A DNA stretch of 64,000 nucleotides, from positions 113,274,001-113,338,000 of the forward strand of contig JBITNC010000001.1 in the NCBI GenBank assembly GCA_050084985.1. The letters run 5' to 3'. This stretch comes from Nageia nagi. Lineage: Eukaryota > Plantae > Pinophyta. Under the pieces are notes generated by a model. It had not been told where the DNA came from. It saw nothing but the letters and a program-made list of their open reading frames with translations, and did no database searches. Numbering within the stretch: the stretch's first letter is position 1; each line of letters starts with the position of its first letter. The translations under genes and the position numbers were made by a program. Of the stretch, positions 5,765-53,342 are shown in pieces.

Positions 5765-5777
5765 TGGTAAACCTGAC
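5765..5777 (+). promoter_or_regulatory. Primer binding site, tRNA-Trp-like
   Basis: tggtaaacctgac vs the complement of the plant tRNA-Trp 3' end (TGGTGAACCCGAC, from memory); two transitions; lies just after the LTR end. Confidence 0.6.
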
Positions 5778-23033: not shown

Positions 23034-23619
23034 AACCAAGTAGTGTTAATTTTGACTATATTCATTAATGGTATTTCCAATAAATACTATGCTTCTTGCA
23101 TTCAATCTCATTAACTCAATAAATTTTCTTAATTCAAAGATTACAATGATTTGTACCTTCTCTAACTTATTATTAAATACAACTTAACTTAATAAAGATG
23201 CATAATTTTTATTTTAAAACTTAATTATAAAGGTATTTCAAAAATTACTACAATTGATCTATTTTCATTAATAGTTTTTCAAACTACTATAAAAAGAATC
23301 GAAACCCTTATAATTATGATGAGCAATTATTACGAAACTTAGATTAACTCTCAAAATAAATACTTGTAATCTAATTCTTATTATGGTGGACAATTAGTAA
23401 CTCTCAAAATAAATACTCTACCATTAGACAAACCAAAAATAATCTAAATTTTACCAACCATTTATTTATTATTATTATTATTAATTTTAAGATCAATTAA
23501 CTATATAAAATTTATATCTTTGACCCCATTCGTAAAGCCCTTATCACTCTACATTATAATAACTAAATATTATATTAAAATCCAATTAAATGCTTTATAG
23601 GATAATTGTAAATCAAATA

Positions 23620-25150: not shown

Positions 25151-25151
25151 A

Positions 25152-26280: not shown

Positions 26281-26684
26281 TCAAATTGATACAAATAATA
26301 CATATTTCCATTTAAAATTCATCATCACATAGTAATATTTCAAATATGGTTTCATTTACATCCTCGATAGTACTCGAGGTCAAATAGGGCCATTAAGCAA
26401 GTCATTATAACTTGTACAAATTATAATGTTTCATAAATAATAGGAAGAAGTACACCCATTCCATGCTTCATTAGTCCACATTGGATGAAATGGGGTAAAT
26501 CACTATATTAATTTTTTATGTATGATTAAATTCAAATTATATGTTATTGTTGTTTAGTATTTAATCAAATTTTATCAACTTTCATATGCATTTTGATGGG
26601 TAACATGGTGTATGCAATTTCATTTTTCAAATCTATAAGTGAGGATCTGAGTATGCTATAAGCATCTGGTGATTACATATCATG

Positions 26685-26696: not shown

Positions 26697-27826
26697 ATAA
26701 GTTATCAAAATTTTAGAGATAAATTCTATGGATTTTCGAGTGCCAAAACCATGCAAGTCTATTTATAGAGCGCCCATGCCTTGATTGTCGATGTTTAGGA
26801 AGAGATCTCAAAGAGCATAATTAATTCTTGAGGATCTTGATATTGGTAGATAGAGAAGAGTGACTATTATGGAACCTATTGATGAAGAACAACTTGAGAA
26901 AATTTGTATCATATCGAATGCCAATTTTAAGAGGATATTTATTGTAATGGAGAATCATTTGGCTATATTGATTGAGCTCTTAGATGGAATTCATTCAAAT
27001 AATAGTCATCAGAGATAACATCATAATGGAAATGAAAGAGGAACTAATGGTACCCTTAATATGGTCCTACTTAGGTGCAACCTTACACACATAATTAGTC
27101 ATATTTTACCTTATTATCACATATTTCTTAGGTTGTGTTCTTATATTTTATGTTAGGTACATTGAGATGACTTCAACGAATATACAAGGGGTAAAATGGT
27201 GAATCATACTTGATATAAATGTAAGCCTCTTTAATCTAGGGAAGGCATGTCAAGATTACATCTCGATAGCTAGTGGCTTACTCTTGGGTGTTTTTAAACA
27301 TCACCTATTGAGATTGTAATCTTATTATCACTCTAGTGAATATCTGTTATCTATTTCTACAATCATATGCTTGATTTAACTTATCATTATCTTTACTATC
27401 ATTGATCCTTATTGGTGAATCTTATTCCTTAGGAACATTTGCATATGTGTTGATGTTCATGCCTATGTTGAGCTCTTAGAGATCCATGCCCATGTTGGTG
27501 TTTCTTTTATAGTTGGCCTTGGGGTTTGCACAACAATATCACCACTCTTTAATAAGTTCATCTATCATACCCTCAACATCGATATAGGTAAGGACACATA
27601 GGTATTTATCTTTAACTCGATTCCTTTCTCTTTAATACATGTAGTTGCATTTTATATCTTGAAATTAATATAATTTCATTATACTATTATTGTAATGTTG
27701 AATTCTCTTATTCATGTATGTTTATTTGAGTTAATTAGCTTAGGTAAATCATACAATAAATGTTTATGTGCTTTTAGTTCATTTAGAGTAAAATCTTAGA
27801 TGATACCAAAACACATATCAACATAC

Positions 27827-27837
27827 TGGCACCCATC
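27827..27837 (+). promoter_or_regulatory. Primer binding site, tRNA-Lys-like
   Basis: tggcacccatc, with a second copy tggtgctcacc at ~27934; their consensus TGGCGCCCACC matches the tRNA-Lys(CUU) complement (from memory). Confidence 0.65.
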
Positions 27838-28049
27838 TTCCTTTGCATGTTTTTTATTCTAAACTAGGGTCAAAATATAAAGTGCTCCCAATCTCACTCA
27901 TCTCTTTTCCTAGTTGGCACAAAATCAACATATTGGTGCTCACCTTTCATAGCATGTTCTCTCTCATAATTAGGGTTAGAATATGATGTGCTCTTGAACC
28001 TATAACTCTACTGTAATGTCGAACCTATTAAAGGTTTTGTTTACATATT

Positions 28050-29799
28050 ATATTCTTAAGATATTTTTTATTACTAGCAATGAAAATTTATATCTTAATA
28101 CTAACCCTATAACTAAAAAACTTAAAAAAGAAGAAGAATTGGTATACCTTAAGTGGTTCAAAGGGAAAGTGAAAGAATTTGTATCAAACACCATCTACCA
28201 ATGTATAAGGTAAGATAACTAAAGAAGCTACTCATAGTGCTCTAGATCAGGAAAGCTTTGCAGATAGCTTTGATAGTTTAGCCAAGATAGTAAATTAGAG
28301 GGTCAATTCAAATAATACAAGATATCAAACTCCTCCAAATCAACAACCTCCTATCAAAACCAAAGAGGAGATCATTTCCTAATTGAGTGATGATGAAATA
28401 TTCAAGAGGGTTATGAATTCCAAGGAGAATATTTTTGATGATGATACAAAGATTTTTGTTGAGGATGAATGTGAGCAAGATGATCCTATAAAATATGAAT
28501 AAATGAATAAGCTTCTAGTAGAGGTTGATACACCATGTCTAGATTGATCAGAGGAAGATAACAAGATCAAAATAAAATTTCTTTATTTAGTTGATGATCA
28601 AGATTTAGCAAACAAGAGTATCCTTGAAAAAGTAAAATACTACAAATGGTTTCTCTACAAAGTACAAAATGATTATACAAATAAAATAGGATTATTTTAG
28701 GTCAATAATAATTACTCAGTTCAATGTACTTGCACAGATGAATGAAAAATATTAGGAAGAAGAAACAAATAGAATTCTTCACTAGGATATGCAACCAATT
28801 CTTGGATGGACTTAAGAAGAAAATGACATCAAGTGTATGAAAATATTAAAATGTAATAGTGATAATATGATATTGATGTCTCATGCTAATAGATAATGGT
28901 TCATATAATCCACATTATATAACATCATATATGAAAGGGATGATAAAATAAGAGCTTTTAAAGTCTTCAGACCTAGACAACATCTAACAACCTTTGAAGA
29001 AGATCAACAATATAAACAAATAATGAAACATGAAAGAGAAGAAATTCTATTTGTCATACCACCTCCACCCATGGAGAATGTAGTGCTAATGATAAAATAG
29101 GATAGATTTGATGGAATACAACAACAAATCAAGATAATAATTAAGTGTAAAGGATTAGCTATCGAACGAAATGAGGATAACAATCTTTTATGCATGTGAA
29201 TCAAAAATACAACATTGTTCTCTTTCAAAGAACTTAAATTTATAAAGTTTGATGGTACTACTAATCCTTGTCTTCATGTATGCATTTTTTTGATGAAGTA
29301 TCTTTAACCACTTTGGATGAGGACTTACATGCCAAGTTATTTTCTTTGTCTCTAAAATGAGAAGCCTCATAATGTTCAACAAATTGCCACATGCTAACAT
29401 TACCAATTTTGCATAATTAAAGATTGTATTTTATGATCATTATCAACTTCATATTGCAAAGAAATTTACATTTAGTGATTTTCTGAAGCTAAAGCAAAGA
29501 GAATGATAGTCTATTGAAAAGTTTATTAGTCTATTGAAAAGTTTATCATATTCTAGACTAAAAAGGCTTATCAAGTTCACATAAATATTGAAATGAAGAT
29601 TATCACTTTCTTATAGGTACTTCAACCAAATTATGTACTAGAATATTTTGATTATCACAATTTACCTCTTGATGCATTCCTATAGGCATTGTTGGAAAAG
29701 GGATAATTCAATATCATATATGGTTATTGGAAACCTGATCAAAGTAAAAAAGGGATAAATCACCCTCACAGCCTCGACATCAGAACAAAAAGGAATAAT
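28050..29799 (+). pseudogene. gag: Degenerate gag, 5' part (continues ~46962-47450)
   Basis: KFIKFDGTTNP..H...F (~29236-29290), LP...ITNFA.L...F, then LKQRE...IEKF, typical of Retrotrans_gag. Confidence 0.7.
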
Positions 29800-30294
29800 C
29801 ATTAGACTAAAAATGGGCTTTGGGGTAAGCAATTTGAGGTGGTTTTCTTATGGCGGTTTTAAATCACCCTAATATTTTATTTTAATGGTGGTTTTTATTC
29901 ACCCTGAAAGAACTAGATGAGGAAGCTAAAAACTACCTCTTCATGAAACCAAAACATAAAAATAAAAATGGACACACGAGGGAATATTTTTGACATTCAA
30001 CATATTTTGAGCTAAGGGGTTAGGAGAGGGGCATTTGGTGTATTTGGCTAAACAAGAGAGGAGAGGGGAGACTAGATGAGAGGAGACATGGTGAGACCAA
30101 ATGATAGGAGACCTGGTGAGACTAGATGATGGGAAATATGTTTTCCTAGGAGGTGTAAGCAAGTATTTCAATCAATGACCTTACAAACTTATAGTATTCT
30201 TTTACATTTTGTATATATGTCCATGCTTTGTATTTTTTTGTATTCTTTCAGAAAATTAGTGAATTATACAAATATTGCAAAACATGAACATCAA

Positions 30295-30560
30295 ACTTGT
30301 CCTAGATGTTGTGTATTCTATCACATGTTTCATGTGTCTATGATTTGTTTTTAGAAAATGCATTTTGTGTATCACACAATCATTAGATATAGTGAAACTA
30401 TGTTTTGTTTATGCATGGTGTCAAATAAATCCTAGGTCTTGTTTTATTCTTCCACATGTTTCATGTGTCTATGGGCCTTTTTTATAAAATCCATTTTGTG
30501 TATCATACAATCATTATAGATTATGAAACTTTGTTTGTGTTATGCATCTTATCAAACAAA
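30295..30560 (-). pseudogene. Two tandem ~134 bp rearranged PPR fragments
   Basis: Minus-strand remnants of LFD.MH..N.VS...MI..YTQNGF..KA joined to .IDT...CGRI.K; the unit is repeated. Confidence 0.65.
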
Positions 30561-30567
30561 ACCAAAA

Positions 30568-31030
30568 CATTCAATTTACAAGAACCAAGTTGATGCATCC
30601 ACACACCCAATTAAAGGTTTATGGGTATTTTGATAATGAAGTTCAAATCTCCCATAGCCTGCATAAACTACAATATTCAATCTATGAGCACCAAGTAGAC
30701 ATATATGCACATCCAATTCATGGTTTATGGGTATTTTGGAAATGAAGTTAAAATCTTCCTCAAGATAGCCTTCTCAAATCATAACATTTCATTTTCAAGC
30801 ACCAAGTAGACACATGCACACACCCAATTTAGGGTTTATGGGTATTTTGGAAATGAAGTTCAAATCTCCCTTAAGATAGTCTGCATGGATCATAACACTC
30901 AATTTACAAGTACCAATTAGACACATGCACACATCCAATTCAAGGTTTATGGGTATTCTAGTAATGAAGTTCAAAGCTCCCTCAAGATAGCTTGCATGAC
31001 CAAGAAGGTCAACATCACATATATAATGAT
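30568..31030 (-). repeat. Four tandem 106-112 bp copies of a PPR S2/E1-junction segment
   Basis: ORF 30795-31130: HYICDVDLLGHASYLEGALNFITRIPINLELDVCMCLIGTCK...YLKGDLNFISKIPINPKLGVCMCLLGA. Units start at ~30570, 30676, 30788 and 30898. Confidence 0.88.
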
Positions 31031-31284
31031 TAATACTATGATTATAGGATATGCATAAAAAAAAAAGACTTGTAGATACTTTTAAGCAGATACAATTGTC
31101 AAGTGTAAAACTAGCTACATGATGAAACACTATACTTTAATAAAGTGTTAAAAAGTAGTCCAAAAGTGGTAATTTGGCAAAAATAAGCTTATAATACTTA
31201 ACAACTATTCAACCCAAAAATTTAAATGCTATGTTGTCTACCTCCACAATAAGTATAATAAGATATAAAGGTTGGATGTCTCTC

Positions 31285-31520
31285 CCCCATGAAACTGTGT
31301 ATGCTTCATGCATCTTGTTAAATAATTATTAGGCCTTATGTATTCTTCCACATTTTGATATATACCTATCAGTGCATTCAGAACCACAACATTTGATGGA
31401 AACCCATTTTCAACTATTCTTTGACAAATGTCCATACCTTCTTCTAGAGCTCCCATAGTGGCATATGTTGGAAGAATGATACATCCCAAGAATAATTCAA
31501 TAAGATTCACTCATGCTATT
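31285..31520 (-). pseudogene. PLS-class PPR fragment (L-S motifs)
   Basis: ILPTYATMGALEEGMDICQRIVENGFPSNVVVLNALIGIY, then after a frameshift KCGRIHKA..LFNKMHEA.TVSW. Confidence 0.9.
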
Positions 31521-32339
31521 AAAGTATTTTTAGCCCTCATCCACTATACTTAGATGGTTGTATGCAAGTATAACACATACACATATTTATATATGTAAAC
31601 AAAACATATATAAAGATTTATCATGGTAGTTTTGTTCTTTACTAAGAGCCTTTTTTATTTTTCACAAAAATGTTCTTAGTAAAGTAAAAAATATAGCCTA
31701 TAAGACCTTATTGAAATATATTACCACTGTACTTGCATCATGCATCTTGTTAAACAATTCTTGGACATTGTGTTTTTTTTCCAACTTATCACTTTGGATT
31801 GGTTTTTAACACTTGGAAAATTTCTTGGTTGAACAATTACTTTCCTTCTCCAAGTCAATTTTTGGATCCTATGGTACTATATTTAAATAATTTCATATCA
31901 CATCATGAATCTTGTCTATCCATGTATTCAAAACCATAAGATTCAATTTACAAAGCACCATGTAGACACATCACATACCCAATTTAGGGTTTATGGGTAT
32001 TTTGACACCTAATATTAATCATAGTAAGTTCAATTATGATGTTGATGATGGATTCCTGAACAATGAACCAATGGAACACATACACATGTCTATATATACA
32101 AGTAGAATAGATACAAAGGTTTCTCATGCTATTAATTTTTTGTTCTTTATAGGATATATTCTAGGATTTGCTAAAAACCCTTTTCTATTTCTCATTCCAA
32201 GAATTAGAAATAGAGAAGGGATTTTATAAAGCACATAATATATGTTGGCCATGGGCTCCTAAAATATGGTCCACTGGAGCTGACCAATCATCGTTATATA
32301 TATTATATAATATATGCAAATGATGAAAGATAAAGGCAT

Positions 32340-32520
32340 GTTCATGATCAAATGCACCATATGATATAAAATGATCCAAATGCACTATATGTTCATGATC
32401 AAGTGCACCAAATGATCCAAATGCACCAACATATGATATGAAATGATCATATTACACCATTTGGTATGAAATGATGCTACTATACCATATGATATGAAAT
32501 GATGCTACTGTACCATATTA
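32340..32520. repeat. ~27 bp degenerate tandem repeat inside the CACTA element
   Basis: Unit about atatgatatgaaatgatccaaatgcacc, roughly 6-7 copies; more copies in both orientations elsewhere in the element. Confidence 0.8.
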
Positions 32521-33569
32521 TTCAAATATGCTCTACTATTCCAATTATTTCTTAAATGAGTTAAATATGATCTACAATACTGCTATCACAACATTCAATT
32601 TAGAAGTATCAAGTAGATACATACATACACCTAAGAAGCACTTATTGAAAAATTGAATTGTAACATATAGATTGATAGGCATGTATGCAAAATATGGAAG
32701 ATATGATGTAGACATAGTTTGATGGACTGTAATGTGGAATATGTATTATGTAGATACAATTTCATATTTTATATCAAAAATTAATTGTATAAAGGTTCTA
32801 ATACAAGCTAGGAAATGAAGTAACCCAAAACATGTTCCATTATTTTCATCTCATCATTCTGTATATACAACACCAAATCCACTTGGGAACCACATATTTT
32901 TGCCAACTTGCCATTTTTGGATTATTTATATCATTTGTAGTTGGCTAAGTATTATAGTTCAGGAAATGAAGGAGCCCATAATATGTTTCATTAGTTTTGG
33001 GTGCTTGAAATATTTTTCATGATTTCAAGTTTTTCAAGTTGAGGGGTTAGAGAAGAGAGTTGCATTTAGATTATTTTATACCATACATATAGTGCACTTA
33101 ATATAATTTCATATCTTATGGTGTACTTAGATCATTTCATATCATATATATGGTGCACTTGACACATTTTCATATCTTTTTTGTCCATATATTGTGATCA
33201 TTATTGGAGGAGAAAGGGGCATTTGTTGTATTAGCAAGACTAGAGAGATGAGGTAAGACCATACATGAGGAGATGTGTTGAGACCAAAGGAGACACAAAA
33301 TAAAGTATTTTGCTTCATCTATGCATTTTTCTATAGAAAAAAATCATTTCATGTCATTATCATATAGTTGCAATTGCCTTTTCATATTGCAATCTCTACA
33401 ATTTTAAGCATTTAGCTTGGTTATGTTGTAACATTATGAACAATGCCAAGGCATAACAGTGATATATCATTTGAGAGATTGCAAATGTAGCTATCCCTAA
33501 TTTTTTTAATTCATGATATTTTGTATAGGTTATGCAAGAGGAAAGACATACAACCTTTATATCTTTTTG

Positions 33570-35647
33570 TGTTATGACCCCATAACATGTATTAGGAATA
33601 GTACTTGTGTTTAGTCCCATATACACTATGCATTGGGTTACTTATGTTGTAAAAGCTATTTATAGGGGGCTTACCTATTATTAAAAGGAAGAATAATTAG
33701 TTGAGTTTTATTTGAGAAGTGATTCTTAAGGAGGTGCCCCCATTGAAGCGGTGTAAGCAATCCATTAGTGTATAATTTGTGTATTTTCATAAGATTAAGT
33801 CATAATTTGATTATAATCCATTAGGATCTTAACATCAGGTTTCAGAGCCACATTTTTGTCTCTTGTGGGTAGTTTATGTGCTTAGTGGTTTTGGATTTTT
33901 GAGTGGTGGGGGATTAACAATTATTAAAAGGAAGAAGAATTAGTTGAGTTTTTTGAGAAGTGATTCTTAAGGAGGTGCCCCCCTTGAAGCAATGTAGCAA
34001 TCCATTAGTGTATAATTTGTGTATTTTCATAAGATTAAGTCATAATTCGATTATAATCCATTAGGATCTTAACATCAGGTTTCAAAGCCCCATTTTTTTC
34101 TCTTGTGGGTAGTTTTATGTGCTTAGTGGTTTTGGATTTTTGAGTGGTTTTGGTTGTATGGGTAGATTTGTGTAGTGTAGGCCCATCTTATCTTTTTGGT
34201 TGATTTATGGGAGATCTAGAGTAGAAGACTGTGAGTGAAAATAGATTCTAGAAGAGAATGAATGTGTAGTAGTTTTGTTGGTAGGAGATGTCTTGAGAGG
34301 ATTCAAGGCTATGCATGGGAATTTGGAAGCATATCTCATAAAGTAAGTGGTAAGGGAGGCTAGATCTAGTTTATGCGATGAAGGAGTAAGGTCATTGAAG
34401 AAAAGTGGTGGTGGTGTAGGAGCGATAGGGAGGAAAAAAACCCAACAACTACATGTTTGGTTGTCAAGATAGAAAGGGGAAAGATCTAATTTTTGCAAGC
34501 TTAAACAAGGGCTTATGAGTATTTGGGGTTTTCTACTATTAGGGATAAATTACATGTTAGAGGGTTTAATTAGAGATTGGAAGGCTTAGAGCTTCAATAT
34601 CATTTTTTCAGTTTATGGAGTCTCATATTTAATTTTTACAAGGATATGTGTTTCATATTTATGCTTTTGGGGATTCCTTATTAGTCTAAAGGGTTTCATA
34701 TGACCAATATTTTTGCATTTTCTCATAAATATCTTTCCAATGGTGTATCACTAGCATTAATCAGAGAACTATAAAAAAAGTTATAGCATTTGGAATGTTT
34801 CTTGATATTGCACCATTTTTGCAATTTGTTTCAATTTCTTTTAAAGTGGTCCTTTTATAGGTTATGAACAAGACCTATTGGACACTCTAAATTAGGATAT
34901 TTATATTAGTTAAAAAAATTTATAATGATGAATACTATTACTACAACATTTCATACTAATTTTGTGCATCATTATATTGATGATTTTGAGGATTTTTGTA
35001 ATGACTATGTGATGGATGAGAAATTAGCCCTTCATTTATTCACTAATGGCTTAAGAGAAGAAGTAAAAAAGAATGTAGTCATTTTTAATCCACCAACTCT
35101 AAGAGATGAATATTAATTGGCTAAGTTAGCAAAGTATATACTTGCATATCCATAGCCTATTATAATTCATGAAAATATCCATGTGGAGCCAGTGGACCCT
35201 ATTATAGAGTGTGAGGACCTTCCTTTCACTTGTATCAATGTGGATGATGTGGCACCAATGGAACCTATTGTAGAGTGTGAGGACATTCCTCTCACTTATC
35301 TTAATACAGATGGTGTAGAGCTAGTGGACCCTATTAAGGAGTATGAGGTCCTTCCTCCACCTTGTATCGATACTAATGATGTGGCTTCTAAGAGTTTGAC
35401 ATGTATTAGGAATAGTACTCATGTTTAGTCCCATATACACTATACATTATGTTACTTATGTTCTAAAAACTATTTATAGGGGATTCCCTATTATTAAAAG
35501 GAAGAAGAATGAGTTGAGTTTTATGTGAGAAGTGATTCTCAAGGAGGTTCCCTCTTCCAAGTAGCATAAGTGATCCATTAGTGTAGAATTAGTGTATTTT
35601 CATAGGATTAAGTAATAATTTGATTATGATCAATTAGGATCTTAACA
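33570..35647 (+). mobile_element. Small internally deleted Met-primed LTR element
   Basis: 5' LTR 33570-33834 (TGTTA...TAACA); 3' LTR ~35399-35647 lacking its start; perfect TSD TTTTG; PBS aggtttcagagcc ~33837; gag-like remnant 34925-35116 (FTNGLREEVK...NPPTL). Confidence 0.88.
35180..35385 (+). repeat. Three ~66 bp in-frame repeats
   Basis: VEPVDPIIECEDLPFTCINVDD-like unit repeated in ORF 35183-35428. Confidence 0.8.
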
Positions 35648-35889
35648 TTTTGTGCTTATTATAGAGGTAAGCAAAGTAGCATATCATATATGATAATGTA
35701 GATAGAATTGTTAATAAAAAACATCTATTAATAATTTTATCTGTATCAGTATCATTCTTATCATAGTAGTTTTTCATAAGTCAATGCTTATAATTATGTC
35801 ATTATTATTTATAAATTGCAAGTGCAAAGAGAGCACCAAGTATGTCATTTCTCATGACTCAAAATGCTTAGTAACTTGTCAAGTACTCG

Positions 35890-36750
35890 ATGAATCATTA
35901 TACATGCAGTGTTGATCTTTGTGGCCATATAGGCTATCTTGAAGAAGTTTTGAACATTATAGATAGTGCGTTTGGTTCATTTTATGTCATATGTTGTACT
36001 TAGATAAGAAACATAGCATTTAGATTTCTTGTTATAATTATTGTGGAGGTAAGCAACATTGCATTTAAATTTCTAGGTTGAATAATTGCTAAGTATTACA
36101 AGCATGTTTTTGCCAACTTACCATTTTTGGATTGGTTTTGATACTTTCTTAAAATATAGTGTTTCATTATGGGTTTAAAATGATAATAATCAATCATCAT
36201 ATTAAATATTTTAATTAGGGAATCTTTATTTTAGCTATGAATTGCATATCTTGCAATCATTGTTTCCATTAAATTATATGGGAACTTAGGTAGTATGTTG
36301 CTTTCCTTCTCCAAGCTAGTTTTATACCTAATAATTGCATCTGATTAAAATTCTCTACAACCTTTCATTTTGGGCATATCCTAAAATTGTAAAGTTAATC
36401 ATTATACATGCATTATTGAACTTCTTTTGCGTATAGACTATCATAAGGAATCTTTGAACTTCACCTTCTACAATGATTTTATGATGCACACAAAATGGGT
36501 GTTCTAAGAATTAAAGGCCCATATACATATGAAATAATTCTCAAGAATTGTGTTTTGTTTGATATTTTGCATACATGTCTATCAGGTCAGTCACAAGCAC
36601 AAGATGCATGATGAAAATATAGTTTCATGGTCTACAATCATTGTAAGATTCCTAGGCTTTCTAAAAGAATGTAGAAAAATTCAAAGCACCAATTGCCCCT
36701 AAGTACCAGAATGCCCATAAACCTTAAATTGGGTGTGTGGATGCATCAAA
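35890..36750 (+). pseudogene. Scattered plus-strand PPR fragments within the CACTA cargo
   Basis: NHYTCSVDLCGHIGYLEEVLN (~35894), NHYTCIIELL...YHKESLNF (~36398), KMHDENIVSWSTII (~36601), MPINLKLGVWM (~36712). Confidence 0.8.
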
Positions 36751-37799
36751 ACCTTTTTATAAATAAATTTTGACATGTAATATGGAATGATTTAAATACA
36801 CTATATAATGTAATATGAAATGATTTAAATACACCAAATGCTCCTTTCCTCTTCAACCCCTCAACTTGAAAAACTCAAAATGACAAAAATAATTCTCAAG
36901 CCTTGTTTATTGTTTCACATTTTGTATACATGAAACAATTCTCAAGCCTTCTTTATTGTTTCACATTTTGTATACATGTGATATGAAATGATTTAAGTAC
37001 ACCATATGATCCAAAAATTAGCTCAAAGAAGGAAATAAATTATTCTGTAGATTCTTAAAAATGAATTATTATTCATTAAATAATTCATTTTAAACCATCA
37101 AAGAATATTTATTGTAAATAGGGTTAAAGTATACCCCAAGGCAATATAATCAATGTAATGGACCATAGTATAATGTAAAGGGTGTCAAATATCAAGAAAG
37201 ATACCACAAATAATGTAATATGCAATGATCCCAAGAATCAAAGAGGATTAAGATGTTGCTATAAAAGAATATCAAAGGCAACAAAATCTATCATTTGAGG
37301 AGGATCGATAGATATCAAAGAGAGAAACCAATAACATGCAATATAATTCCATCTGACCAACAATAGTATTTTGTAACACCACCTTTGCATAGATCTAGTA
37401 AACCCTCCATTTCACTTGTTCACATCTTTGCTTCTATTTGTAGATCTATGTCTTCCATGTAGCTAACGATTTGCTTCTTGGCCATTGGTGGCATGTGTTT
37501 CCTATGGTGTATTATGGTGATGGATGTGTGATCTTTATTACTTTATGTTGATATGAATACAATGAAGGTACATTGATTATCATATTCATTTGATGCCATA
37601 TTTCTGATATATGCTTAAATATTACATTGTATATGAATAGTGCTTTGTTTATCACTTGTGCATTATTTTTGGTCTACATTTTGGTGAACTTGATTATTTC
37701 AATTAATCTTTCTCTACTGATAAGATCTCATAAGATTTTTGTAAAGGATATACACCATTAGTGGCATGCATTGACTCTTTCTACTTTGTAAGTAGTGTA

Positions 37800-40700: not shown

Positions 40701-43700
40701 TAATCCAATTAATCAAAAACCTAAAAAGATGCATCCTTCCAATGCATTGTTAGTTAAAAAATAAATAGAGAAGTATTTGAATGTTGGATTCATTAAACCA
40801 ATTGATTATTTAGAATGAATGGTTAACATTATTCTTGTTACAAAACCTACTGGAGAAATAAAGGTTTGTACTGATTTTTGTTATATCAATAATGCTTATC
40901 CAAAACATGATTTTCCATTACCTAATATTGATATGATTATGGATAATATTTCTAGTCATGATACTTTATATTTTATGAATGGATTTTTGGGATATAACCA
41001 AATACTAATCAATCAATTTGATCAATATAAGACTAGTTTTACTACTTTATAGGGAAATTTTTATTAGAAGGTTATGCCTTTTGGATTGAAAAATGCAATT
41101 GCTACTTACTAAAGGGCCATAGTGTCAATATTCCTTGAGCACATTCATAAATTAGTAGAGGTATATGTTGATGACATATTGGTAAAATCAAAGCAAGGAC
41201 AAGACCATTTAGAGCTCCTTGAAGAGGTATTTCAAATCCTAAAGAGGTATAAGCTTAGAATCAAACATCAAAAGTGTAATTTTGTTGTTACTTCAGGAAA
41301 ATTGCCTGGATCCATGGTATCAAAAAAGGGTATTAAGGTAGATCCTAAGAAGGTTAAAGCCATAGTAAGCATCTCCACTCCAAGGAACCTTAAGCAGCTA
41401 AGGAGTCTTCAAAGAAAGATAAATTTGGTAAGAAGACTCATTTCTCAACTTAGAGATAAATGTAGGCCATTAACTCATTTTTTGAAAAAATATGTCAAGT
41501 TTGTGTGGGATGAAAAATTTCAAAAAACATTTGAGGATATAAAGAAATACTTGTTAAATCCTCCAATATCAATACCCATGTATTTTATAAAATGTACAAA
41601 ACCAACATATCTTTACATATCAGCCACTTTGTATGCCTTGTGGGCAATGTTGTGTCAGAAAGATAATGATAATAAAGAAAGAGAAATATACTACCTTAGC
41701 AAAACTCTTATTGATTATGAAACTAGATACACACCTATGGAAAAGCTTTGATTTGGTATTATTTTTGCTACAAAAAAATTAAGACATTATCTTTTTTATT
41801 GCACTACATATGTTGTTAGCCCAATTAACCCACTGAAATATCTAATAGCAAAACAACATTTATTAAGAAGAGTAGCTAAATGGTGGATGTTATTGCAAGA
41901 ATTTGATATCAATGTGGTAAAGAAAAAATCCATGAAAGGATAGGAAATCATAGAATTGATAGCAAAATTCCCTTAGAATGATGGTACAATGGTACATGAA
42001 GAATTCCTAGATTATTATAATGAGGATTCATGCAACCAACGGTGTGAAGTACTAATAAAAGGTTGCTAACAGCTTGACATTGATGAAATGAAAATCTCAT
42101 ATGAGTTTGTGTGCTACATAGAAGATGAACCTATAGCTTGGACCCTATATTTTGATGGATCCAAATGTTATTACAGAGCAGGGGAAGGTATTGTTTTAGT
42201 ATCTCCTACAAATGAGGTAATTCCTTTGGCTTATAAACTTAGATTTGAGTGCACCAATAACATGATAGAATATGAAACTTTGATTTTGGGATTAAAAGCA
42301 TATATAGCTTTGAAAATAAAATATTTAGAGATTTATGTTGATTCATAGCTTGTGGTAAATCAAGTTAATGATACATACAATACAAAGCATGAAAAGCTAA
42401 AGCCATATAAGATAGTGGTTACTAAGTTGCTTGATGAGTTTCATAGGTACAATATTTGAAATATTTCAAGGAATAATAACAGGTATGTAGATGCAATGGC
42501 AAGTGCAACTTTATTGGCACTAATTGAGATAGAAGATGAAGAAACTATCCTTAAGATTTGAAAGCTTGGTACAACTTCTTACCTTGATCACATAGATGAA
42601 GTACATACAAGCCACTTAGAAATAGATAGTGATCCTTAATAATGGTATGATGATATTTACAATTATTTAAAATATCAAATAATTCCATCAAGTTTTGATA
42701 GAAATGAAAAAGTTAGATTAAAGAGGACAACTATTAAGTATGTGATTATTGGTGAAGTATTATATAGAAGGTCATTTGATGGTGCTTTATTGAGATATCT
42801 AACACAACATGAAGAAACAAAAGAATTAGAAAAGCACATGATGGGTTTTATGGAGGAAACTTCTATGCAAAAGCATTGTATACTAAGCTTTTACAAATTG
42901 GGTACTATTGGCCTACAATGGAGGAAGATTATAAGAATTATGTTAAAACCTATTTACATTGTCAAAGCCATGCAAATTTGGAGAAACAACCAACTCAAGA
43001 GCTGAATTCCATAGTTTCACCTTGGACATTTGCAACATGGGCCATAGATTTGATTGGGCTTATCAATCCACATTCAAGGGAAGGTCACAAATTCATTATT
43101 ACAACCACAAAATTTACCACAAAATGGGTTGAAGATATTCCAATGAAGCTAGTCACACAAGATAAGATCATTGCATTCTTGATAGAGAATATCATAACCA
43201 GATTTGGAGTACCACAAAGTTTGATCATAGATAATGGGCCAAAGTTTAGAGGTAAAAACATGAAATCCTTTTGTAAAAAATTTCACATTTCTCAAATATT
43301 TTCTTCATTTTATTACCCTTAAGGCAATGTTCAAGTAGAAGCATCAAATAAAACTATTAAGAGCATTTTGTCAAAAATATGGTATAGATACAAGGTAAAT
43401 TGGCATGAGGAGTTACCTTATGTAGTTTGGGCATGCAAAACTAGTATTAGAACAACCATTGGGGCAACACCATTTTCATTAGTCTATAGAGATGAAGCTA
43501 TAGTACCATTAGAGTTGGAGTTGTCATCCTTACAAATTTTATTACAAGGAGAAATATCAGATGAAGAAGCAAGGAAAGTTAGATTGCAATAGTTGGAAAC
43601 ACTTGATGAGAAGAGAATCAAGGCAATTGAACATCAAAAAACTTATCATGCAAAACTAAAAAGGGCATTTGGAAAGAAGATAAAATCAAAGGAATTCAAG

Positions 43701-43900
43701 GTGGGAGAATTGGTACTAAAAGAAAATATTAACAAGACAACTGCACATGATGAAGTCAAAGGAAAATTTGTATCAAATTAGCTAGGTCCATTTGTTGTAA
43801 TTAAAATAATAGGATCAAAAGCTTACAAATTATCATACATGGATGGAAAAGAATAATAAAAACTCTTTAATGAAATGCATCTTAAATGCTTCTTTGCATA
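37800..43900 (+). pseudogene. pol: Degenerate gag-pol polyprotein
   Basis: RT KHDFPLPNID...VEVYVDDILVKS (40819-41751); aRH WTLYFDGSK...CTNNMIEYETLILGL (42088-42348); integrase YYWPTM...PWTFATWAIDLIG...ITRFGVP...DNG (42876-43322). Many stops. Confidence 0.95.
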
Positions 43901-44109
43901 AGATAATGGATTTGAACCTTGCAAATTAACAAATATTTTATGTAAGGTACATGTATTTTATTTTTCATTTTCATTTATGTAGTTTCTTTCATTGCTTCAC
44001 ACAACTGACAACATGCATTACTATTTGTACATTGCCAACTACATAAGAAAAAGACATAATAAAGAGGAAAGAAAAAGAAAATGACAGTATAATATCTATG
44101 AACCAAGGA

Positions 44110-44430
44110 CATGGTCACCGATGGTCATTGATATGGCTAGTGAGAGTTCACTCACTTAAAATATAAACCAATGATGTAGCCATGAAAAAGATGGCGATAT
44201 TGATTCATCCTCAATGGATGATACAACTTGCTATGTATCCATGCAATTTTTTATTTGAACCATATAAAGTATAATATCTTAAGATCATATACATAAAATA
44301 TATGATCATCGATAGCCATCGATACGGCTAGTGAGAGTTCACTCACTTAAAAGATAAACTAGCAATGCATTTGTAAGTAGATTGTTGATAGTGACTTATT
44401 ATCAATGGATGATGTAACTCACTATGTATC
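44110..44430 (+). repeat. ~192 bp duplication in the 3' UTR
   Basis: ggctagtgagagttcactcacttaaaa at ~44134 and ~44326 with matching downstream sequence. Confidence 0.8.
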
Positions 44431-47400
44431 TACAATGTTTTAATATAGAGTATATATAACACTTTTTTTCAGGTATCTACATTAAAATAAGGAAATAAAC
44501 TCATGCATAAACCATGTTGTTAACAATGTATAAACACTATTTTCATGCAGCCAAAAATATGAATGATAATGAATCAAAGGTGCAAATAAAAGCAATTTTT
44601 TTTTTGTATCAAGGAATGGATGTAAGAGAATCAGATTCTTAAGTATCAAAAATGATGAAACAACTAGATCCATGATTGAATATTGTAAGGGGAAAATATT
44701 CTCTTCTATTTCAAAGATTGGATGTGGGACCATAAGACTCCCTAGTAGTAGAGACAAAGGAATAAAGTTCCTTCCATGGAAAAAAGATATAGTTCTTTAA
44801 GTTTTATCTTGGACACACCACTTAAGGATCTTTCCTAGGGAAACCAAGTCAAAAGGGGGTAGCAAAGGACCCTCATCATGAAATGGAAGTGTTGGATAAC
44901 GAGTTCAAAGTTCTTAAAAATTTCTTCTATACTTTTTAATTGGATATGTAATTTCATTGCTTTAATCACACCTCCAAAGAGAGGAAACATTTAGATGCCT
45001 AAATATGAATTATTATTTATTAAATAATTTATTTAAAAATATCAAGAAATATTTATTGTAAAGAGGGTTAAAATATACCTCAAGGTAATGTAATCAATGT
45101 AATGGACAATGGTATAATGTAAAGGGTGTCAAATATCAATAAACAGACACACAAACAATTTAATGTGCAATAATCCCAAGAATCAAAGAGGATCAAGACG
45201 TTGCTATAAAAGAATATCAAAGAAAACAAAATCTATCATGTGAAAAATATTAGTAGATATGAGAGAGAGAAACCAATAACATGCAATATCATTCTATTTG
45301 ACCAAAAATAATATTTTGTAACACCACCTCTCCATAGATTTGTTAAACCCTTCATTTTGCTTGTTCATATCTTTGCTTCTATTTGTAGATCTACTTCTTC
45401 CACATAGCTAATGACATGCTTCTAGGTAGTTGGTACTATGCATTTCCTATGGTGTATTATGGTGATGAATTTATGATCTTTATTACTTCATGTTGATGCA
45501 AATGCGATGAAGGTACATTGATTATCATATTCATTTGATGCCATATTTCTGATATATGCTTCAATATTATATTATATATGATTAGTGCTTTGTTTATCAC
45601 TTGTGCATTATTTTTGGTCTACATGTTCAACATGTGATATGAAATAATTTAAATACACTATATGATCCAAAAACTCAAAATGACTAAAACATTCCATGTG
45701 CTTGCCTAAGTTGGCAAAAAACATGGTAGTAATAGATAGCCAAACAAAAAAAAAAAAAGTGTTTCCTAAGTGGTTCATCAGATCAAAGTTTAAGGGCATC
45801 CATATTGTAGCCATGAATTGCATTTTCTCTACCCATTGAAATCCATGAGACTATGTATGCATCATGCATCATCCACATTTTATATTCATGTATATAAGGT
45901 TTTATGTTTCATTTCATTTATTTTAAAAAATGATACTTAGGTGTGTGGATGTGTCTACTTGGTATTTGTAAATCAAAATGTTGTGGTAGTAGTATTGTAG
46001 AGCATATTTGAATAATTTGAGAAATAATACTTGATCATTATTGTGGCATTATTGATCATTTGAGCATAATTGTAGAGCATATTGGATCTTATTAACCTTC
46101 TTCAAAACATTATGTTTGCATCATGCAACTTATCAAATAATTACCAAACCTTGCATTATATATTTATATCTCACAATCATTGTATACAATGAAATTGTGT
46201 TTGCATCATTTATCTTGTCAAACTATTCTTAGGTCTTGCATCATGCATTTGCTTAAAATTCCATAATTTTCTATCATATGGTAGACTTGGATAATTTCAT
46301 ATCATATGTTTGAAGCATCCATGTTAATTGTGTGGTAACATAATGATTATATATGTATTGAGAGCTTCTAATGCATGATGTTTTGAATAGGTTATCTTGG
46401 AAGAAATATATCTTATTGTATAGGTAAGAAAACATAACTTTTAAATTTCTAGGTTGAATAGTTACAAAGTACTACACATAAATAATAATACATACATACA
46501 TACATATATATATATTATATATGATTGGTCAATTCTATAGGGCCATCCTTCAAGATTCCAAGGCCAACATCATAAATGGGCTAACTATGATCGAGCTTGG
46601 GTGCATCGGGTAAATCGAGGATGACATTTAAGAATGATTTTAGGCTACAGATAACTATGCAATGATTTTTAACCATAGTCTATACCTATAAAGTGGTTGC
46701 TTAAACCAACACCTTAAAAACTGAGGTAGGTTCAGGGGTAGTTATAGCTGCCTACATTGGTTAATATAGAGATGGTTTATACTCATTGCTATATGATAGT
46801 AGAAGGAATTTTTGGGTAATATATATTGGTGGTTTTTAGTTTCCATCATAGAGAAGGGACTTTTGGAGGTGGGGTCATAGGCAATGGGAAGATAACCACC
46901 AATAAATATGATATGTGATGATATATAACCACCTCTAAAAGCCCTTTCTAATCTAGTGAATCTTATGAAGCACAAATAGTAGCCAAAGTGAAATAGGTAC
47001 AATACCCTACAACAACATCAAATGATATTTGAAAGTTAAAAAATATGAGAAATAAATCTATATAGAGTGTCAAAAATTTCCTAGATGGAAATCCACACCC
47101 ATCTATGATGATATTGATAAAGTAACAAGAAATTTAATCAAATAAAAGTTATTGGTTTCACCATAAAAGGATACAAATCAATTTTTTTTTTAGCAAGAGT
47201 ACCAAAGGAGTACAAATTGAATGAGTTATATGAGTATCATCAACAATGAGGGTATTTAATAGTGTATTTTGTGGCATTACTCAATAAGATTTAGGACCTA
47301 ATTGATCAAAAGAAGTTAGCTTTCCCAGAACTAAAATTTGATGATCAATCAAAGTAATTGAGAGGTTATCAACATGAGAAGAACAAGACTATGGGCATCT

Positions 47401-48499
47401 TCAACAATCCATTTTCAAATTTCATCAAAGCCAAGTCATCAAATACAAATATTAAATTTATGAGTAATCTTCCTCTACCATGACATAAAGGTACACATTG
47501 TTGTTCTTGCTCTTGTCATTCATAGTTTTTTGACATGTACATAGTAGTATAGATGTTTTTGTTTTAGTTTTGTGGTAAAATTCTCCTTAGATCCCTGCAT
47601 TCCCACTAGGATGCAATCCACCTATCCTTCATCTCCAATACAATGAGGGCATCTGTTAAACATTAGAAGTCACATCCCCATATCCCTTTGTATCTTTGCA
47701 TGATGTTGGTCTTCTTACCAAATCTTAGGAAGCCAATATTACATTGTTTTAATGCATATCCTTGTAGAGGTCATAACCTATGCCTTATTAGGATTTATCA
47801 TTATTTTCTAAGAAAAACTTGTCCATTTGTCACCATTTTTTAAGAAAAACTTATGCCAAAACTTTCCTGGAGGATCAATCTAGTGCTGAAGAGGATACTC
47901 CTACCTCTGGTTCTTATTTGTTATACTAGAATCTATGTTGGGTTTCTTACCATATTTTTCATATAGTCCAAATTTTCTTATCTATTACAATCATTCTTAC
48001 CAGCTTGAATATGGTTTCACTTTAAGATTCACCTTTAAATTTATTTTGGAACCTTAGGTTCATTTTAGATTTCATATTCCCTTAATCATAATTATGATTA
48101 CATATCACTTTTTTAGTACCTAAATAATAAATTTCCATGCCATCATGTTACCTTGATCTGATAAGTCACAACTAGATCTCTTAATCCCTTACCAATGCTA
48201 GTGCCCATGTTGGTTTCAATTCACTTTTCTCATATATATGTAGTACCTTCAAAGCAATGTACAAGCCACCATGTTCATTATTTAACCATTACATAACTTA
48301 ATTACAAGTTAAACATTCATGTGTCTCACACTTAGCCAATTCAAAGCAAATATAAAGTCTTAAATAATCATAACATAAACATTCCATAGTACTATCATAT
48401 ATATATATATATATTTCAATTATATTAATAAAAAATAGGGTAATACATTATCTTTGCTAAAATATACATCCAAGCAGCCACACCTAAGTCAATTCCCTA

Positions 48500-51110
48500 T
48501 TCTAACATAGCTACCAGTACCATGGTGACTACTACCACTCCAAAAGCTTTTGGACTTTGAGGTCCTCCTACTCAAACTTGGCCTCTTTGGCCTAGTTGGT
48601 TCCTCCAAATCTATAAGTTAAGCTTGTAGGTGTCCATTATTGCCCAATACATCTTTTATATTCTTGTTTTATTGAAGCAAACAATCCATTATTCATAGGA
48701 AGTTGTGATCCCATAAATTTTGGTGCAACTTATATAGGGTCTTCATGCTCTACTCAAGAGCCTCTAGTCTCACCTTAAACACCTCTATCTCTTGATATTT
48801 TGTAGTAGTCTCATCCTTCAATATTATTAGGGATTCCTTAACTTATTTCCTTACTAATTTCTTTGAGTCTATGTCCAAGTTTGTTTGATCTACAAAAAAA
48901 TAAAACAAAGCATGCATATTAGTCATATTATTATTTCATAAAAACTAACTTGTAGGTATATAAAGAAATATACTTACTAAGCTCATTCTACGATGGGAAT
49001 CTCAATGGAAATATCCCATCCTCCATGTTCACCATATTATGATGGCTCCTTCACCCATACATCCTTCTCTTCTTCATCATCCCCATCATTTTCCTCTTCC
49101 TCTTATTCCTTTTCCTCTCCCTTAGGAACCTCTGGTAACCACTCTAATCCATACAATCTAAGTGGATCAAGTCTCACTCCATCCCACCATGTAAAATAGG
49201 CTTGATCAAAATATGGCCTATCAAGATATTCATCTCCCTTACTATTTGAATCACTACCCAACCCATGGTCTTGGGGAGGTTACCATTCCTCCACCCATTT
49301 AAGAGTAGTCTCATATAAATTAGGGTCATGTACCCTATACCTACCTATCCTAACTAGAAACTTGCATTCTTGTGGAATGACCTATCTTTGACCAAATTAC
49401 CTCATGATAATCTCAATTTTATATGGATCCACAAATGAATTATGCATCTACAAGTATCTTGGTGTGCACTACGAGTCTAGCTCACCACCTATCTTATTTT
49501 TCCAATAAGGTATAGCTAGATAGCGTCTATAGTTCACATCTCCTAGAAAATAAAAGTCATGAGTTAGTCTTTTCCATTAACTAATAATCATGAGTTAGTC
49601 TTTTCCATTAACTAATAAGCCAACAAACTAAACCATATATGGTAAATTACTTACCATCCATCAAACCATCCATGAATTTCTTATACGTATCCACAGTCTT
49701 GTGTACCCATGTAATCTTTCCATGCTTCATCCATTGATACCACATCGGATGATCAAGAGCTATGCCATGTATAAGAAGCTCTCTAGGATGAACCATGTAA
49801 ATATACTTATACATCCAAAATTGAAGAATAAATAAATGTGCCACTCTCTTCCCACTCTTCTATACCATGAAAAAGTTATGTAAATCATGGTAAATCTAGG
49901 GAATGATATAAGGTGCCCATGTATATCGATGACCCTATGTCATCTCATAGACAACTTGTATCAGTCCAAGTGAAAATACCTCATGATTCTTATCTAGGTA
50001 TGCAATGATATCAATACATGTTTCCATAACAAATCAAACACATGTGAACCTCTTCATCTTGCTCCTAAAAAAATGAAGGAAGGCACCCTTTGTCACCTCA
50101 TGATACTCTAAAAAACCTTTAATCCAATTGGCTAATCATTTGCATTGTTCTTAATCATTTCCTCCTCAAAGAATATATATTTTCCCTTCATAGGAACCCA
50201 TATAATCTTATGAATATCCTCATACACTATAGTAATCTCCCCAGTAGGAAGATGAAATGTGTTGGTCCTCTCAGACCGTCTCTCCATCAAGGTTGTCAGT
50301 AGCTCCTTGTCCAATTGAACATATGGAGCATGGAGGAGCCATCCCTTACCAACAAATTGTAACACACCTATATACTCCTCTATGAGATTATCCTTCATCA
50401 CCAAGTACTTCTTCCAACTCTAATACAGACTCAAGATCCATGAGGAATTGATAATACTGCAAGCACAAATCAATAAGGTACACATTAGTTTTTGATATAA
50501 TTTCAATATACTCATAGTACAAAAATTTTGTTTAATTATTTCTAGCACATATAACTAAATACCACACCTAGATAAACATTTTTCCATCCTAAAATTAACT
50601 CTACTGCATCAACACCCATGCTAATGTTAGCACCCATGTTAATGTTAGTGCTCGCATTGGGCTTTCCACGATCACTTTTCTCAAAAATTAGAGGCAAACT
50701 CCCTTTATTCTCAAGATTCAACAAAATATTGATTTAACATCCAAATAACACTTCTAAATATAAAAATGAATAGGCCCTATGTCACTAAAACCATGCCTTC
50801 AAAACCCATGATTTTACATTTGTCACTTATTCATAGGAAAAATTCACAAAATTAAAACACTAGGTTGATTTTAGACACTTACCACATGAGTCAAAACATT
50901 GTTGTATCACAAGAGGTAGGCCCTATGGTTCTCTTGCTTTGTAATCTTCATCTTGGAGTGCAAAATTGAGTCAAAGATTTAGAAAACACCATGAAAATAG
51001 ACCAAATTATTTTAATTCACAAACCAAATCGCTTACCTAGTAATGATGATCACCCATAATGCTCCAAATCATCTCAACAACCTTACCCAACTCTTCTTTG
51101 ACTAGAGCTC
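48500..51110 (-). pseudogene. Multi-exon plant mobile domain (PMD) pseudogene, antisense within the LTR element
   Basis: ORF 50132-50404 LLTTLMERRSERTNTFHLPTGEITIVYEDI (PMD signature); RYTWAPYI...IYHDLHNF; LQFWMYKYI; IMR.FGQ..VIP. GT-AG introns at 48890-48977, 49543-49654 and 50457-50882, a further donor at 51036 and a candidate ATG at 50951. Confidence 0.85.
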
Positions 51111-51170
51111 AATCTCCAAATAGTGAAAGTAACAACTAAGTTCCTATCTAGCCTATTTAAAACCAAATTA
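51100..51170 (-). promoter_or_regulatory. Candidate antisense core promoter of the PMD gene
   Basis: Minus-strand tttaaatagg TATA-like box; 13-mer GACTAGAGCTCAA at the same 51 bp offset as in the 10779-10850 copy. Confidence 0.5.
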
Positions 51171-53342
51171 TGATACATTTATTGAGATAGATGTTAATTG
51201 ATAGTTGTATTCTATCTCTTGTATCTTCATAATATGATTTTCTTACTCCTTATACCATTCGAGTCAAGTTTCATTTGTATGTGTGCTCACATTAATGACA
51301 ACGTTATCATTCCTTGGAATTCATAACCTCAGTCCACACATCACAAGTCCTACAGCTACATGTGGTATAAAAGTTAATATAGGACTAACATATCTTGGAT
51401 AATCAAGTTTTTATAGACACAAAAAAATATCTAATCGAAGAATGATGTCTTCGAATTACATTTGTTATTGGGAAAAACCTATTTGTCACAAACTCAAGCA
51501 CTCTAATTGAAATTATTAGGTATGAAATTATGTTTTTTAGAAACATATATCATGCTACTTATTATAGCTCCAACAGTAGAAATATCTAGTGGAAAATCAC
51601 TAGTACACACACTGAAGCTAGTATAGATGTTGGGTAACAAAGGTATGAATCATGCCGAATCACATCATATTAGCATAATGGGTAAGTAATAGGGAGTATT
51701 TCTATCCTTATCTAAATTTTTCATTTAATCATTCACATGATTGGGAAATATTAAAATCAATTATCATTGAGTCATCTTTGTTGGTTGGGTCTTAACTAAC
51801 CATCACCCTTAAATCACATCTAAGAATGGGGCATGTACCTCATGATAATGATTGCAATTCATGTCCATATCTAAGCATGGGGCATGCACCTCATGATGAT
51901 GAATGATATACCACAAAATATGGTTGGGAAATATTCAAACCATCCATATCATTGAATCACCTTTATCGATTGGGTCTCAACTAACCATCACCATATTGCT
52001 CTTCTTGGTTCATATATTGCATCTAGGAATAGGGAATGTACTTCATGATGATGCTAAAATATATCATTCTGATTGCATGTCTTCTATATAAGAATATGGC
52101 ATTCACCCCATGATTATGTGGACACACCTTTTTGATGTATGCATATAATAATGAAGCAATGATTATTTTTATGTTTAGTTTTCTCAACATGATGTACACA
52201 TATTATATTAATTTCATCTTTTCTTTATTATTGCTATATAATTTGATAAAATAATATGATATTCTCTCTTAATATCATTTCTATATCTTTTATGAGTTAA
52301 CAATCATAAATATGCTTGAAAGTGTTTGCCTCTCATTTTTAGGTTTCATTCTTTGCTCTTGGTTGATTCTACTACATGCAAGCTATTATATCTCACAACC
52401 AAGGAAAAGAGGGGGTAATATACATCATTAAATCCTTGATGATTTAGACAACTAAATTGGGGAAGTGTCAAATTTTTCTTCTCTTTGCCTTTACTTCCTT
52501 TGCAATTATAATGCCATTTCAAGATTCAATTTCATTATGCTTATAAAGGGGGGCATCTGTTAACACCTAAAAGTTGTCCCTTTAATACAATACCACTTAC
52601 GTGCAATTTTACACATACAATTAATCATATTTTAGTTATATTTTACTTTATTATCACATATTTCTTAGGTTGTTTTCTTATGTTTTATATTGGGTACAAT
52701 AGGAAGGCTTAAACCAATATTTAGGGGGCCAAATGGTGAATCACATTTGATATAAATGTAAGTATATCTAACTTATGGAAGACATGTCAATATTACATCT
52801 TAATAATTGGTACCCTACTTTTGAGCATTTCTAAACACCAACTATTGAGATTGAAATCTTGTTATCACTCAAGTGAATATCTATTATCCACTTTCATGAT
52901 CATATGCTCAATTTGACTTGTCATCATATCTGTTATTATCTATCCTTGTTGGTGAACCTCATTCCTTAGGAATATTCACAATCACACTGATCTCTCAGAT
53001 ATTTGTTCCTATGCTATTGTTCCTTCTATAGTTGGCCTTGGGGTTCGCACAACAAGGTTATCACTCTTTGTTAAGTTCATCCATCATACCCTCAACATCG
53101 ATACAAGTAAGGACACACATGTATTTATATTTCACTTGATTCTTTTTTCTTTAGTGTGTGTAGTTGCATTTTACATCTTGACATCAATGTAATTTTATTA
53201 TAATATTGTTGCACTATTGAATTTCCTTATTCATGTATGTTTATTTGAGTTAATTAGCTTTGGTAAATCATACAATAAATGTTTATGTAGTTTTAGTTTA
53301 TTTAGAGTAAAACCCTAGGTGATACCAAAACACATATCAACA

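Follow-up and report, generated by a model that had tools for sequence, protein, structure and literature searches.

The DNA considered here, hereafter the window, is a stretch of 64,000 nucleotides (nt) of contig JBITNC010000001.1 (positions 113,274,001 to 113,338,000, forward strand). It holds a decayed long terminal repeat (LTR) retrotransposon, which we call the outer element, and whose span of 26 kb is mostly foreign DNA. Once a CACTA-like insertion in its gag gene is removed, 9139 bp are left, consisting of an LTR, a primer-binding site (PBS), gag, a spacer of about 1 kb, a gene for a PMD protein on the opposite strand, a 3' region with repeats, a polypurine tract (PPT) and the second LTR (Table 1). 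An earlier note, made from the sequence alone, had described an element of ~9 kb in which paired LTRs, a PBS and a PPT enclose gag and an antisense PMD gene, without pol, and this description was borne out. In a self-comparison of the window the LTRs are 81% identical over 756 aligned sites (Kimura two-parameter distance 0.226). The PBS is decayed and presumably resembles a tRNA-Lys site. No target-site duplication survives for checking at the window copy because the start of the 5' LTR and some of the gag of the surrounding host element were deleted at the junction (27044).

Table 1. The outer element, the DNA nested in it and around it, and a second element of like layout (positions in the window; L001 and L003 are related copies described in the text).
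Feature	Position	Strand	Remarks
5' LTR	27045-27823	+	first ~10 nt gone
Insert of ~107 nt	27824-27930	+	PBS-like copy (at 27827) and second LTR-end-like motif; no counterpart in L001
PBS	27934-27944	+	decayed; homologous to L001 PBS
gag, 5' part	28060-29800	+	long N-terminal extension and capsid domain; decayed; start approximate
gag, 3' part	46960-47525	+	decayed zinc-knuckle-like motif; frame ended by 47525
Non-coding spacer	47526-48486		at the place expected for pol; common to L001 throughout, to L003 down to 47933
Internal copy of PPT/LTR-start motif	47644-47680	+	kept in L001
PMD last exon	48487-48889	-	by eye helical and like a coiled coil; position of stop shared by three copies; 369 nt free of indels in comparison with each of the two other copies; dN/dS 0.31 and 0.38
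Intron D	48890-48977	-	88 nt (86 nt in L001 and L003)
PMD exon 3	48978-49542	-	PMD end and acidic tract (~49050-49123); 20 nt shorter near end than other copies; dN/dS 0.43 and 0.39
Intron C	49543-49654	-	112 nt; 85 nt in L003, which keeps both sites
PMD exon 2	49655-50456	-	core PMD; frameshifts near 50425 and 50160; dN/dS 0.42 and 0.27
Intron B	50457-50882	-	426 nt; donor kept in L003, acceptor not at aligned place
PMD exon 1, likely coding	50883-50951	-	69 nt; 80% identity; dN/dS 0.24 on only 22 codons
Intron A	50952-51036	-	85 nt; both sites kept in L003
Candidate upstream exon	51143-51037	-	weak, uncertain
Candidate fifth intron	51246-51144	-	weak, uncertain
3' non-coding region	51247-52544		short repeats (one at 51737-52118); conserved in L003; putative place of antisense promoter
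PPT	52545-52557	+	
3' LTR	52558-53342	+	TG...CA ends
CACTA-like DNA element in gag	29801-46959		17 kb; terminal inverted repeats; 3-nt AAT duplications
Small nested LTR element	33588-35647	+	gag remnant; tandemly doubled 5' LTR
Nested complete Tat-type element	37046-45623	+	gag, reverse transcriptase (RT), RNase H, aRH, integrase; own LTRs 87% identical; separate from outer element
Host Ty3/gypsy LTR element	26433-58320	+	its gag interrupted by outer element; not part of it
Second, distant element	~5650-13020	+	gag ~5900-8130; ~800 nt T-rich, non-coding; PMD ~8900-10100 (-); PPT 12150; LTR remnants

Related copies provide the comparison on which much of the following depends. A search with PMD exon 3 gave 14 relatives at E <= 0.001, and four of these, aligned as a query, led to four loci (L001 to L004) on metagenome contigs. 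L002 was dropped, being 99.4% identical to L001 and the same locus, and so was L004 as a chance match without likeness to the window; a single weak match in prokaryote genomes (L005; E 5e-4 over 45 residues) was treated as chance, and scans of viral contigs for relatives were blank. The LTR start that the 5' LTR of the window copy lacks is intact in both L001 and L003.

Where pol would be expected, a non-coding spacer lies between gag and the PMD gene. Pfam matched no pol domain in any of 18 frames (six each in the spacer, the 3' region and the body of the CACTA-like insertion up to 37045), whereas the same search had no difficulty in detecting RT, RNase H, aRH and integrase in the Tat-type element nested in that insertion, although this element is just as decayed. 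The absence of pol claimed in the earlier note therefore holds for this copy; Pfam likewise gave no protease match in the outer element. Two other identities of the spacer were considered and rejected, namely a relic of pol (none of 6 frames scored above shuffles, and the nested pol is not similar to it) and a decayed LTR (shuffled alignment z 0-2, best profile E 0.54). Under the same frame-picking rule as for gag, dN/dS in the spacer is 0.98 and 1.03.

The core of the antisense gene matches PF10536 twice above the curated Pfam cut-off, on the minus strand (E 5.3e-10 and 1e-9), and the acidic tract and distinct last exon that had been reported are both present. The gene is not intact in the window copy: 575 aligned codons contain 19 stops and three frameshifts, and no start codon was found in this copy. 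The three reported GTAAGT...YAG introns (B, C and D) are in place, and the comparison with other copies supports them, but a fourth (A) had been missed and donor motifs occur at chance frequency. There are thus probably four introns rather than three, and possibly a fifth, as judged from the aligned sequences. Removal of intron D yields one continuous frame in both L001 and L003, its donor being kept in L003 and its acceptor in L001. A distant homolog in the window (10030-9600) reads straight through the position of intron C without an intron; its alignment covers 132 residues with the intron spliced out vs 41 unspliced, although the gain in score is small, from 113 to 119. T-richness also sets the introns apart (0.37-0.49 vs 0.25-0.33), all four donors are kept in L003 (background 68 of 157), and intron B has 63% identity and a dN/dS of 0.7-1.2. 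No relative of solved structure was found by sequence, a single-sequence fold of the PMD core reached a pLDDT of 40, too low for use, and the ESM Atlas gave no usable match for P0002. A promoter scan stayed at chance level, the model being a bacterial one that is not applicable to a plant.

Several observations weigh against the introns. Of the four acceptors only two are kept in L003 (background 111 of 207), so that conservation of the sites as a whole is modest; the donor of intron D is lost in L001 and its acceptor in L003. Five donor motifs are seen, a number reached by 145 of 500 shuffles. The three short introns (73-81% identity) are no more diverged than exons 3-4 (65-69%), and non-triplet indels occur in exons also, which is either adverse or neutral. 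Moreover, both the splicing and the strand of the transcript are deduced from a comparison of DNA. Even so, we consider it likely that the introns are spliced.

Could the loss of pol be an accident of this one copy, as the earlier note had itself considered? L001 is collinear with window positions 49334-46967 and then 29797-27048, and thus runs through PMD exon 3, spacer, gag, the empty site of the CACTA-like element and the 5' LTR at 70-76% identity (about 30% diverged from the window copy), with no gap larger than 31 nt in the spacer. It therefore carries the same gag-spacer-PMD junction. Its 5' LTR is equally far from the two window LTRs (K 0.254 from the 5' and 0.255 from the 3' LTR), and since both values exceed the 0.226 within the window pair, L001 is a separate insertion. 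That pol was deleted privately at the window locus, or that the introns are chance motifs in a decayed reading frame, is in our view very improbable. The window copy does have other private deletions, its donor motifs are not enriched over shuffles, and a similar repeat lies ~700 nt upstream of both copies (window 25258-26387, L001 8607-9831). Yet identity in this repeat reaches only 59-64%, compared with 79% in the LTRs, and the DNA between repeat and LTR differs from one locus to the other, and for these reasons the two loci are not orthologous; the shared junction largely refutes a private deletion, and the joining of the frame across intron D in two other copies, together with the distant homolog that has no intron C, speaks against chance motifs.

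L003 extends from the 3' LTR through PMD to 47933, where it continues into the LTR of another family (beyond 5526) and unrelated DNA without a pol match; being cut off there, it is uninformative on the link to gag. Pol is accordingly absent from 2 of 2 copies that span the whole interval from gag to PMD, the window copy and L001. Against a family-wide loss it must be said that two complete junctions are too few to claim that most copies lack pol, that all copies found are decayed pseudogenes, and that no autonomous partner was found; word-indexed searches among longer proteins gave nothing at E <= 0.001, which is weak evidence given the decay. The proposal in the earlier note of a non-autonomous family that lost pol and kept gag and PMD is supported by the shared junction in an independent copy and by a dN/dS well below 1 in both genes, with pol absent from both complete junctions. 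On balance, a non-autonomous, pol-less family is very probable.

Sequencing run X1 (DNA contigs, share 0.09) adds a view on abundance, its depths not being copy numbers and remaining compatible with pol-bearing relatives. Summed contig depth is 80-190 up to 47535, then 2-23 across the spacer, and ~900-4100 over 51582-52505. At 47530 there is a loose end (4 contigs; among the 6 loose ends listed out of 100) that is T-rich and spacer-like, and the joints across the spacer were not taken as bridges, since their sides are only 21 and 29 letters long. These depths show that the family is abundant.

A second, very distant element in the same window has the same layout. Its gag is 27-32% identical to that of L001, its antisense PMD (E 3e-7) has an acidic tract, and a T-rich stretch follows gag here too (8130 on); Pfam matched no pol domain in it. 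Intron C is absent, and an intron similar to intron D is possible near 9246-9157. It is represented by one decayed copy, and the lack of pol may be peculiar to this copy.

The gag gene matches Retrotrans_gag (PF03732) weakly, at E 0.002 in the window and 1.6e-4 in L001. The window copy is ~500 nt short of L001 in the 5' part, and the 3' part, beyond the CACTA-like insertion, is collinear with L001. In a pairwise comparison with the gag of the nested aRH-bearing Tat element, it is 40% identical over 50 aa (E 3e-6; knuckle region E 0.053). Its N-terminal extension of ~500 residues (window 28060-29200; L001 5300-6900) has no Pfam match, and purifying selection is seen in part of it at least. At the end of gag we noted a T-rich candidate intron on the sense strand (GT...AG, ~119 nt; window 47491-47609, L001 ~4195-4075), which recalls the gag-pol intron of Ogre and is followed by a frame without clear coding signal.

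Purifying selection has acted on gag and on all four PMD exons. The dN/dS values are simple Nei-Gojobori counts on heavily decayed copies and are conservative, because decay after insertion pushes them towards 1. For PMD, where the earlier note had asked for a test of values below 1, comparison with L003 gives a dN/dS of 0.35 (bootstrap 0.28-0.43, from 536 scored codons out of 575); with L001, which lacks pol, it is 0.39, and L001 compared with L003 gives 0.26. Each exon segment lies within 0.24-0.43. The other two minus-strand frames give 0.89 and 1.67 against L003. The four segments of gag give 0.36, 0.69 and 0.41 in the 5' part and 0.42 in the 3' part. Two values are less favourable: the second gag segment (interval 0.45-1.08) is not clearly below 1, and one frame of the strand opposite to PMD gives 0.48, as expected from shared third positions, the strand being settled by the Pfam match. 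Neither the window copy nor L001 has pol, which makes it probable that selection was at work after pol was gone, provided that no 3' halves had been swapped with helpers. Such exchange is the core of one alternative, in which PMD is a passenger that earned its selection in autonomous partners and reached the pol-less copies through template switching. Co-packaging with a helper, part of established retroelement biology, would allow it, and the copies differ more in PMD exons 3-4 (K 0.42-0.48) than in their LTRs (0.25-0.31). We nonetheless find it unlikely: the spacer, which only pol-less copies could share from end to end, is collinear with a K of 0.375, near those of gag (0.34) and PMD, and gag, on the other side of the deletion, has the same dN/dS as PMD.

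The pol gene may have been lost when the DNA from the end of gag to an internal PPT-like site was deleted long ago. In the window copy and in L001, a PPT followed by ~25 nt resembling an LTR start is found ~120 nt past the gag stop; the PPT/LTR-start motif has two matches in the window where 0.03 are expected, for a pattern chosen after the motif was seen. The internal copy may have served as a further site of plus-strand priming, or it may be a remnant of a fusion. The available parts of PMC1142308 do not mention a second PPT, and those of PMC11152179 contain nothing relevant. If the motif is a relic, the element would have arisen when a gag-only, TR-GAG-like element was joined to the 3' half of a PMD-bearing Tat element, an origin we consider improbable as the remaining spacer is unlike any LTR by the alignment and profile values given above. 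This alternative concerns origin only, and it fits either function of PMD.

Food for interpretation is why an element without pol should retain PMD. We read the outer element as a dead copy of a non-autonomous family with gag and antisense PMD but no pol. Its full-length sense RNA was likely packaged by its own Gag, and protease, reverse transcriptase and integrase were likely borrowed from an autonomous partner of Tat type. The PMD protein likely came from a separate, spliced antisense transcript, with a putative promoter in the 3' region or 3' LTR, and kept its own family expressed; the introns would survive reverse transcription since they lie on the strand opposite to the genomic RNA. The most speculative step is that PMD acted as a nuclear, sequence-directed anti-silencing factor comparable to VANC or MAIN/MAIL1. 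We chose this role because those PMD proteins whose activity is known resemble VANC and work on chromatin, and the expense of PMD to a pol-less element would be explained if the protein acts on motifs of its own family. The analogy draws on host PMD-C proteins and not on the PMD-A of retrotransposons, which counts against the step. We put the whole account, anti-silencing function included, at a probability of about 0.5.

Alternatively, the same pol-less family with the same spliced gene could have used PMD for RNA export, assembly of Gag particles or guidance of integration. Selection shows that PMD was needed and not what it did, the acidic tract and helical last exon would suit contacts with proteins, and roles of this kind have been listed by analogy with retroviral accessory proteins (PMC7264820). 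Such a role is possible, but we are doubtful of it, given that wherever the activity of a PMD protein is known, it concerns chromatin and gene expression (PMC5418596; 10.1101/2024.09.27.615353).

Returning to an anti-silencing PMD, a more far-reaching reading, which we think rather unlikely, is that 'gag plus PMD' elements recur as a class in plants whose genomes are large and slow to clear such DNA, the window itself having no fewer than two families that are very distant from each other. Such elements would have lost all enzymes, while their host-like PMD gene of several exons was retained for anti-silencing specific to the family. Should this be true, such a PMD would be to retrotransposons what VANC is to DNA transposons, and the two partners might even live in symbiosis, with counter-silencing provided by the pol-less element and enzymes by its helper. 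The function of retrotransposon PMD has been open ever since these open reading frames (ORFs) were described, and mere presence never showed need; that pol was discarded while PMD was selected as strongly as gag points to a role that benefits the carrying family itself. Intron-bearing PMD genes in retrotransposons would also bear on whether host MAIN/MAIL genes came from the retrotransposon domain or gave rise to it. Additionally, our data suggest that surveys of single ORFs (250 codons; PMC6317226) under-describe PMD genes if these are multi-exonic, and that an abundant class of elements escapes classifiers that rely on pol domains.

The remaining DNA of the window is largely other mobile elements. 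The CACTA-like element, whose terminal arms score z 8.3, contains the two nested LTR elements. The nested Tat element has the domain order RT-RH-aRH-INT, notable if the host plant is a gymnosperm, as this order is assigned to angiosperm Ogre and Retand (PMC6317226). A GC content of 30%, LTR pairs of considerable age and the TatIII-like layout would suit a gymnosperm-like host. Decayed fragments resembling PPR genes were seen by eye at 31290-31560 (-), inside the CACTA-like element and with a weak Pfam PPR match (E 0.005), and at 23600-25200 (+); they suggest capture of gene fragments. The host gypsy element has LTRs at 26433-26675 and 58082-58320 (84% identity) and Pfam matches to gag, RT, RNase H and integrase from 53340 onward. 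The distance between its LTRs (0.19 over 239 sites) is slightly below that of its guest (0.23), which we attribute to sampling. At 20500-22000 (-) lie a chromovirus integrase and chromodomain in a frame far less decayed than its neighbours, and at 2299-3438 the 3' region, PPT and LTR of a related subfamily (profile E 8e-132), with a weak match to the 3' region of the outer element.

An antisense accessory gene with introns in a gypsy element is brtn of Boty in Botrytis. That gene is fungal, encodes an unrelated protein and stands in an element with pol. Boty has been listed as having an antisense ORF (PMC7264820). The same work reports that the antisense gene of Grande has its own promoter, and calls for a search for antisense, spliced transcripts (PMC7264820). 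Multi-exonic antisense transcripts of Copia elements have been described, but they are non-coding (10.1101/2024.04.02.587720).

Neither an antisense PMD ORF in a Tat element nor an LTR family that has gag but no pol is new in itself. In the 3' region, PMD ORFs have been described as antisense extra ORFs from gymnosperm TatIII on (PMC4408406), and PMD was found in 57% of Ogre elements by a method using ORFs of 250 codons (PMC6317226). Gymnosperm TatIII and lineage V, the latter with a coiled coil after PMD, share with our element the antisense PMD in the 3' internal region, and perhaps the helical tail (as judged by eye) and a Tat-like gag; their elements carry pol and their PMD genes are described as single ORFs, whereas here pol is absent and four or five introns are likely (PMC4408406; PMC6317226). 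A multi-intron PMD gene in a plant LTR element, or a pol-less family that keeps one, was not found in a full-text literature search conducted mostly at listing level, which did not take in Steinbauerova et al. 2011 or supplementary material; relevant evidence may lie in figure S4 of PMC4408406 and in additional file 4 of PMC6317226.

Among pol-less families, TR-GAG and those with only gag and protease have LTRs, PBS, PPT and gag without enzymes and are mobilised in trans (PMC13570524). In TR-GAG, gag is the only gene and the element is short, whereas the present element, of about 9.6 kb and with 9139 bp in the window copy, has a second selected gene and no detected protease. Non-autonomous ATHILA elements, with a pol deletion of ~3 kb, are likewise abundant derivatives in the OTA superclade, of ~9 kb and in several families (10.64898/2026.03.20.713144), but they keep protease in addition to gag, and the extra ORF of ATHILA, present in only about a quarter of elements, is not PMD and lies in sense (PMC7264820). 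Antisense TRP28 ORFs of Retand and Grande also represent an accessory gene with its own promoter, in families of which some are non-autonomous (PMC11963269; PMC7264820). Their domain is different; according to the available text, 9 of 10 defective clusters (among 63) are without gag, and one is without RH and INT (PMC11963269). The word 'intron' is absent from the main text of PMC7264820.

The functional comparison is with MAIN, MAIL1 and MAIL2, which share the PMD domain but are host genes (PMC5418596; 10.1101/2024.09.27.615353), and with VANC, a separately expressed anti-silencing factor encoded by a transposon, with a similar predicted fold, but in a DNA transposon. Host PMD-C proteins counteract silencing by Polycomb, and their fold is similar to that of VANC (10.1101/2024.09.27.615353). 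At the level of the family, our finding brings known parts together in a new combination, a PMD gene with several likely introns under selection in a pol-less family.

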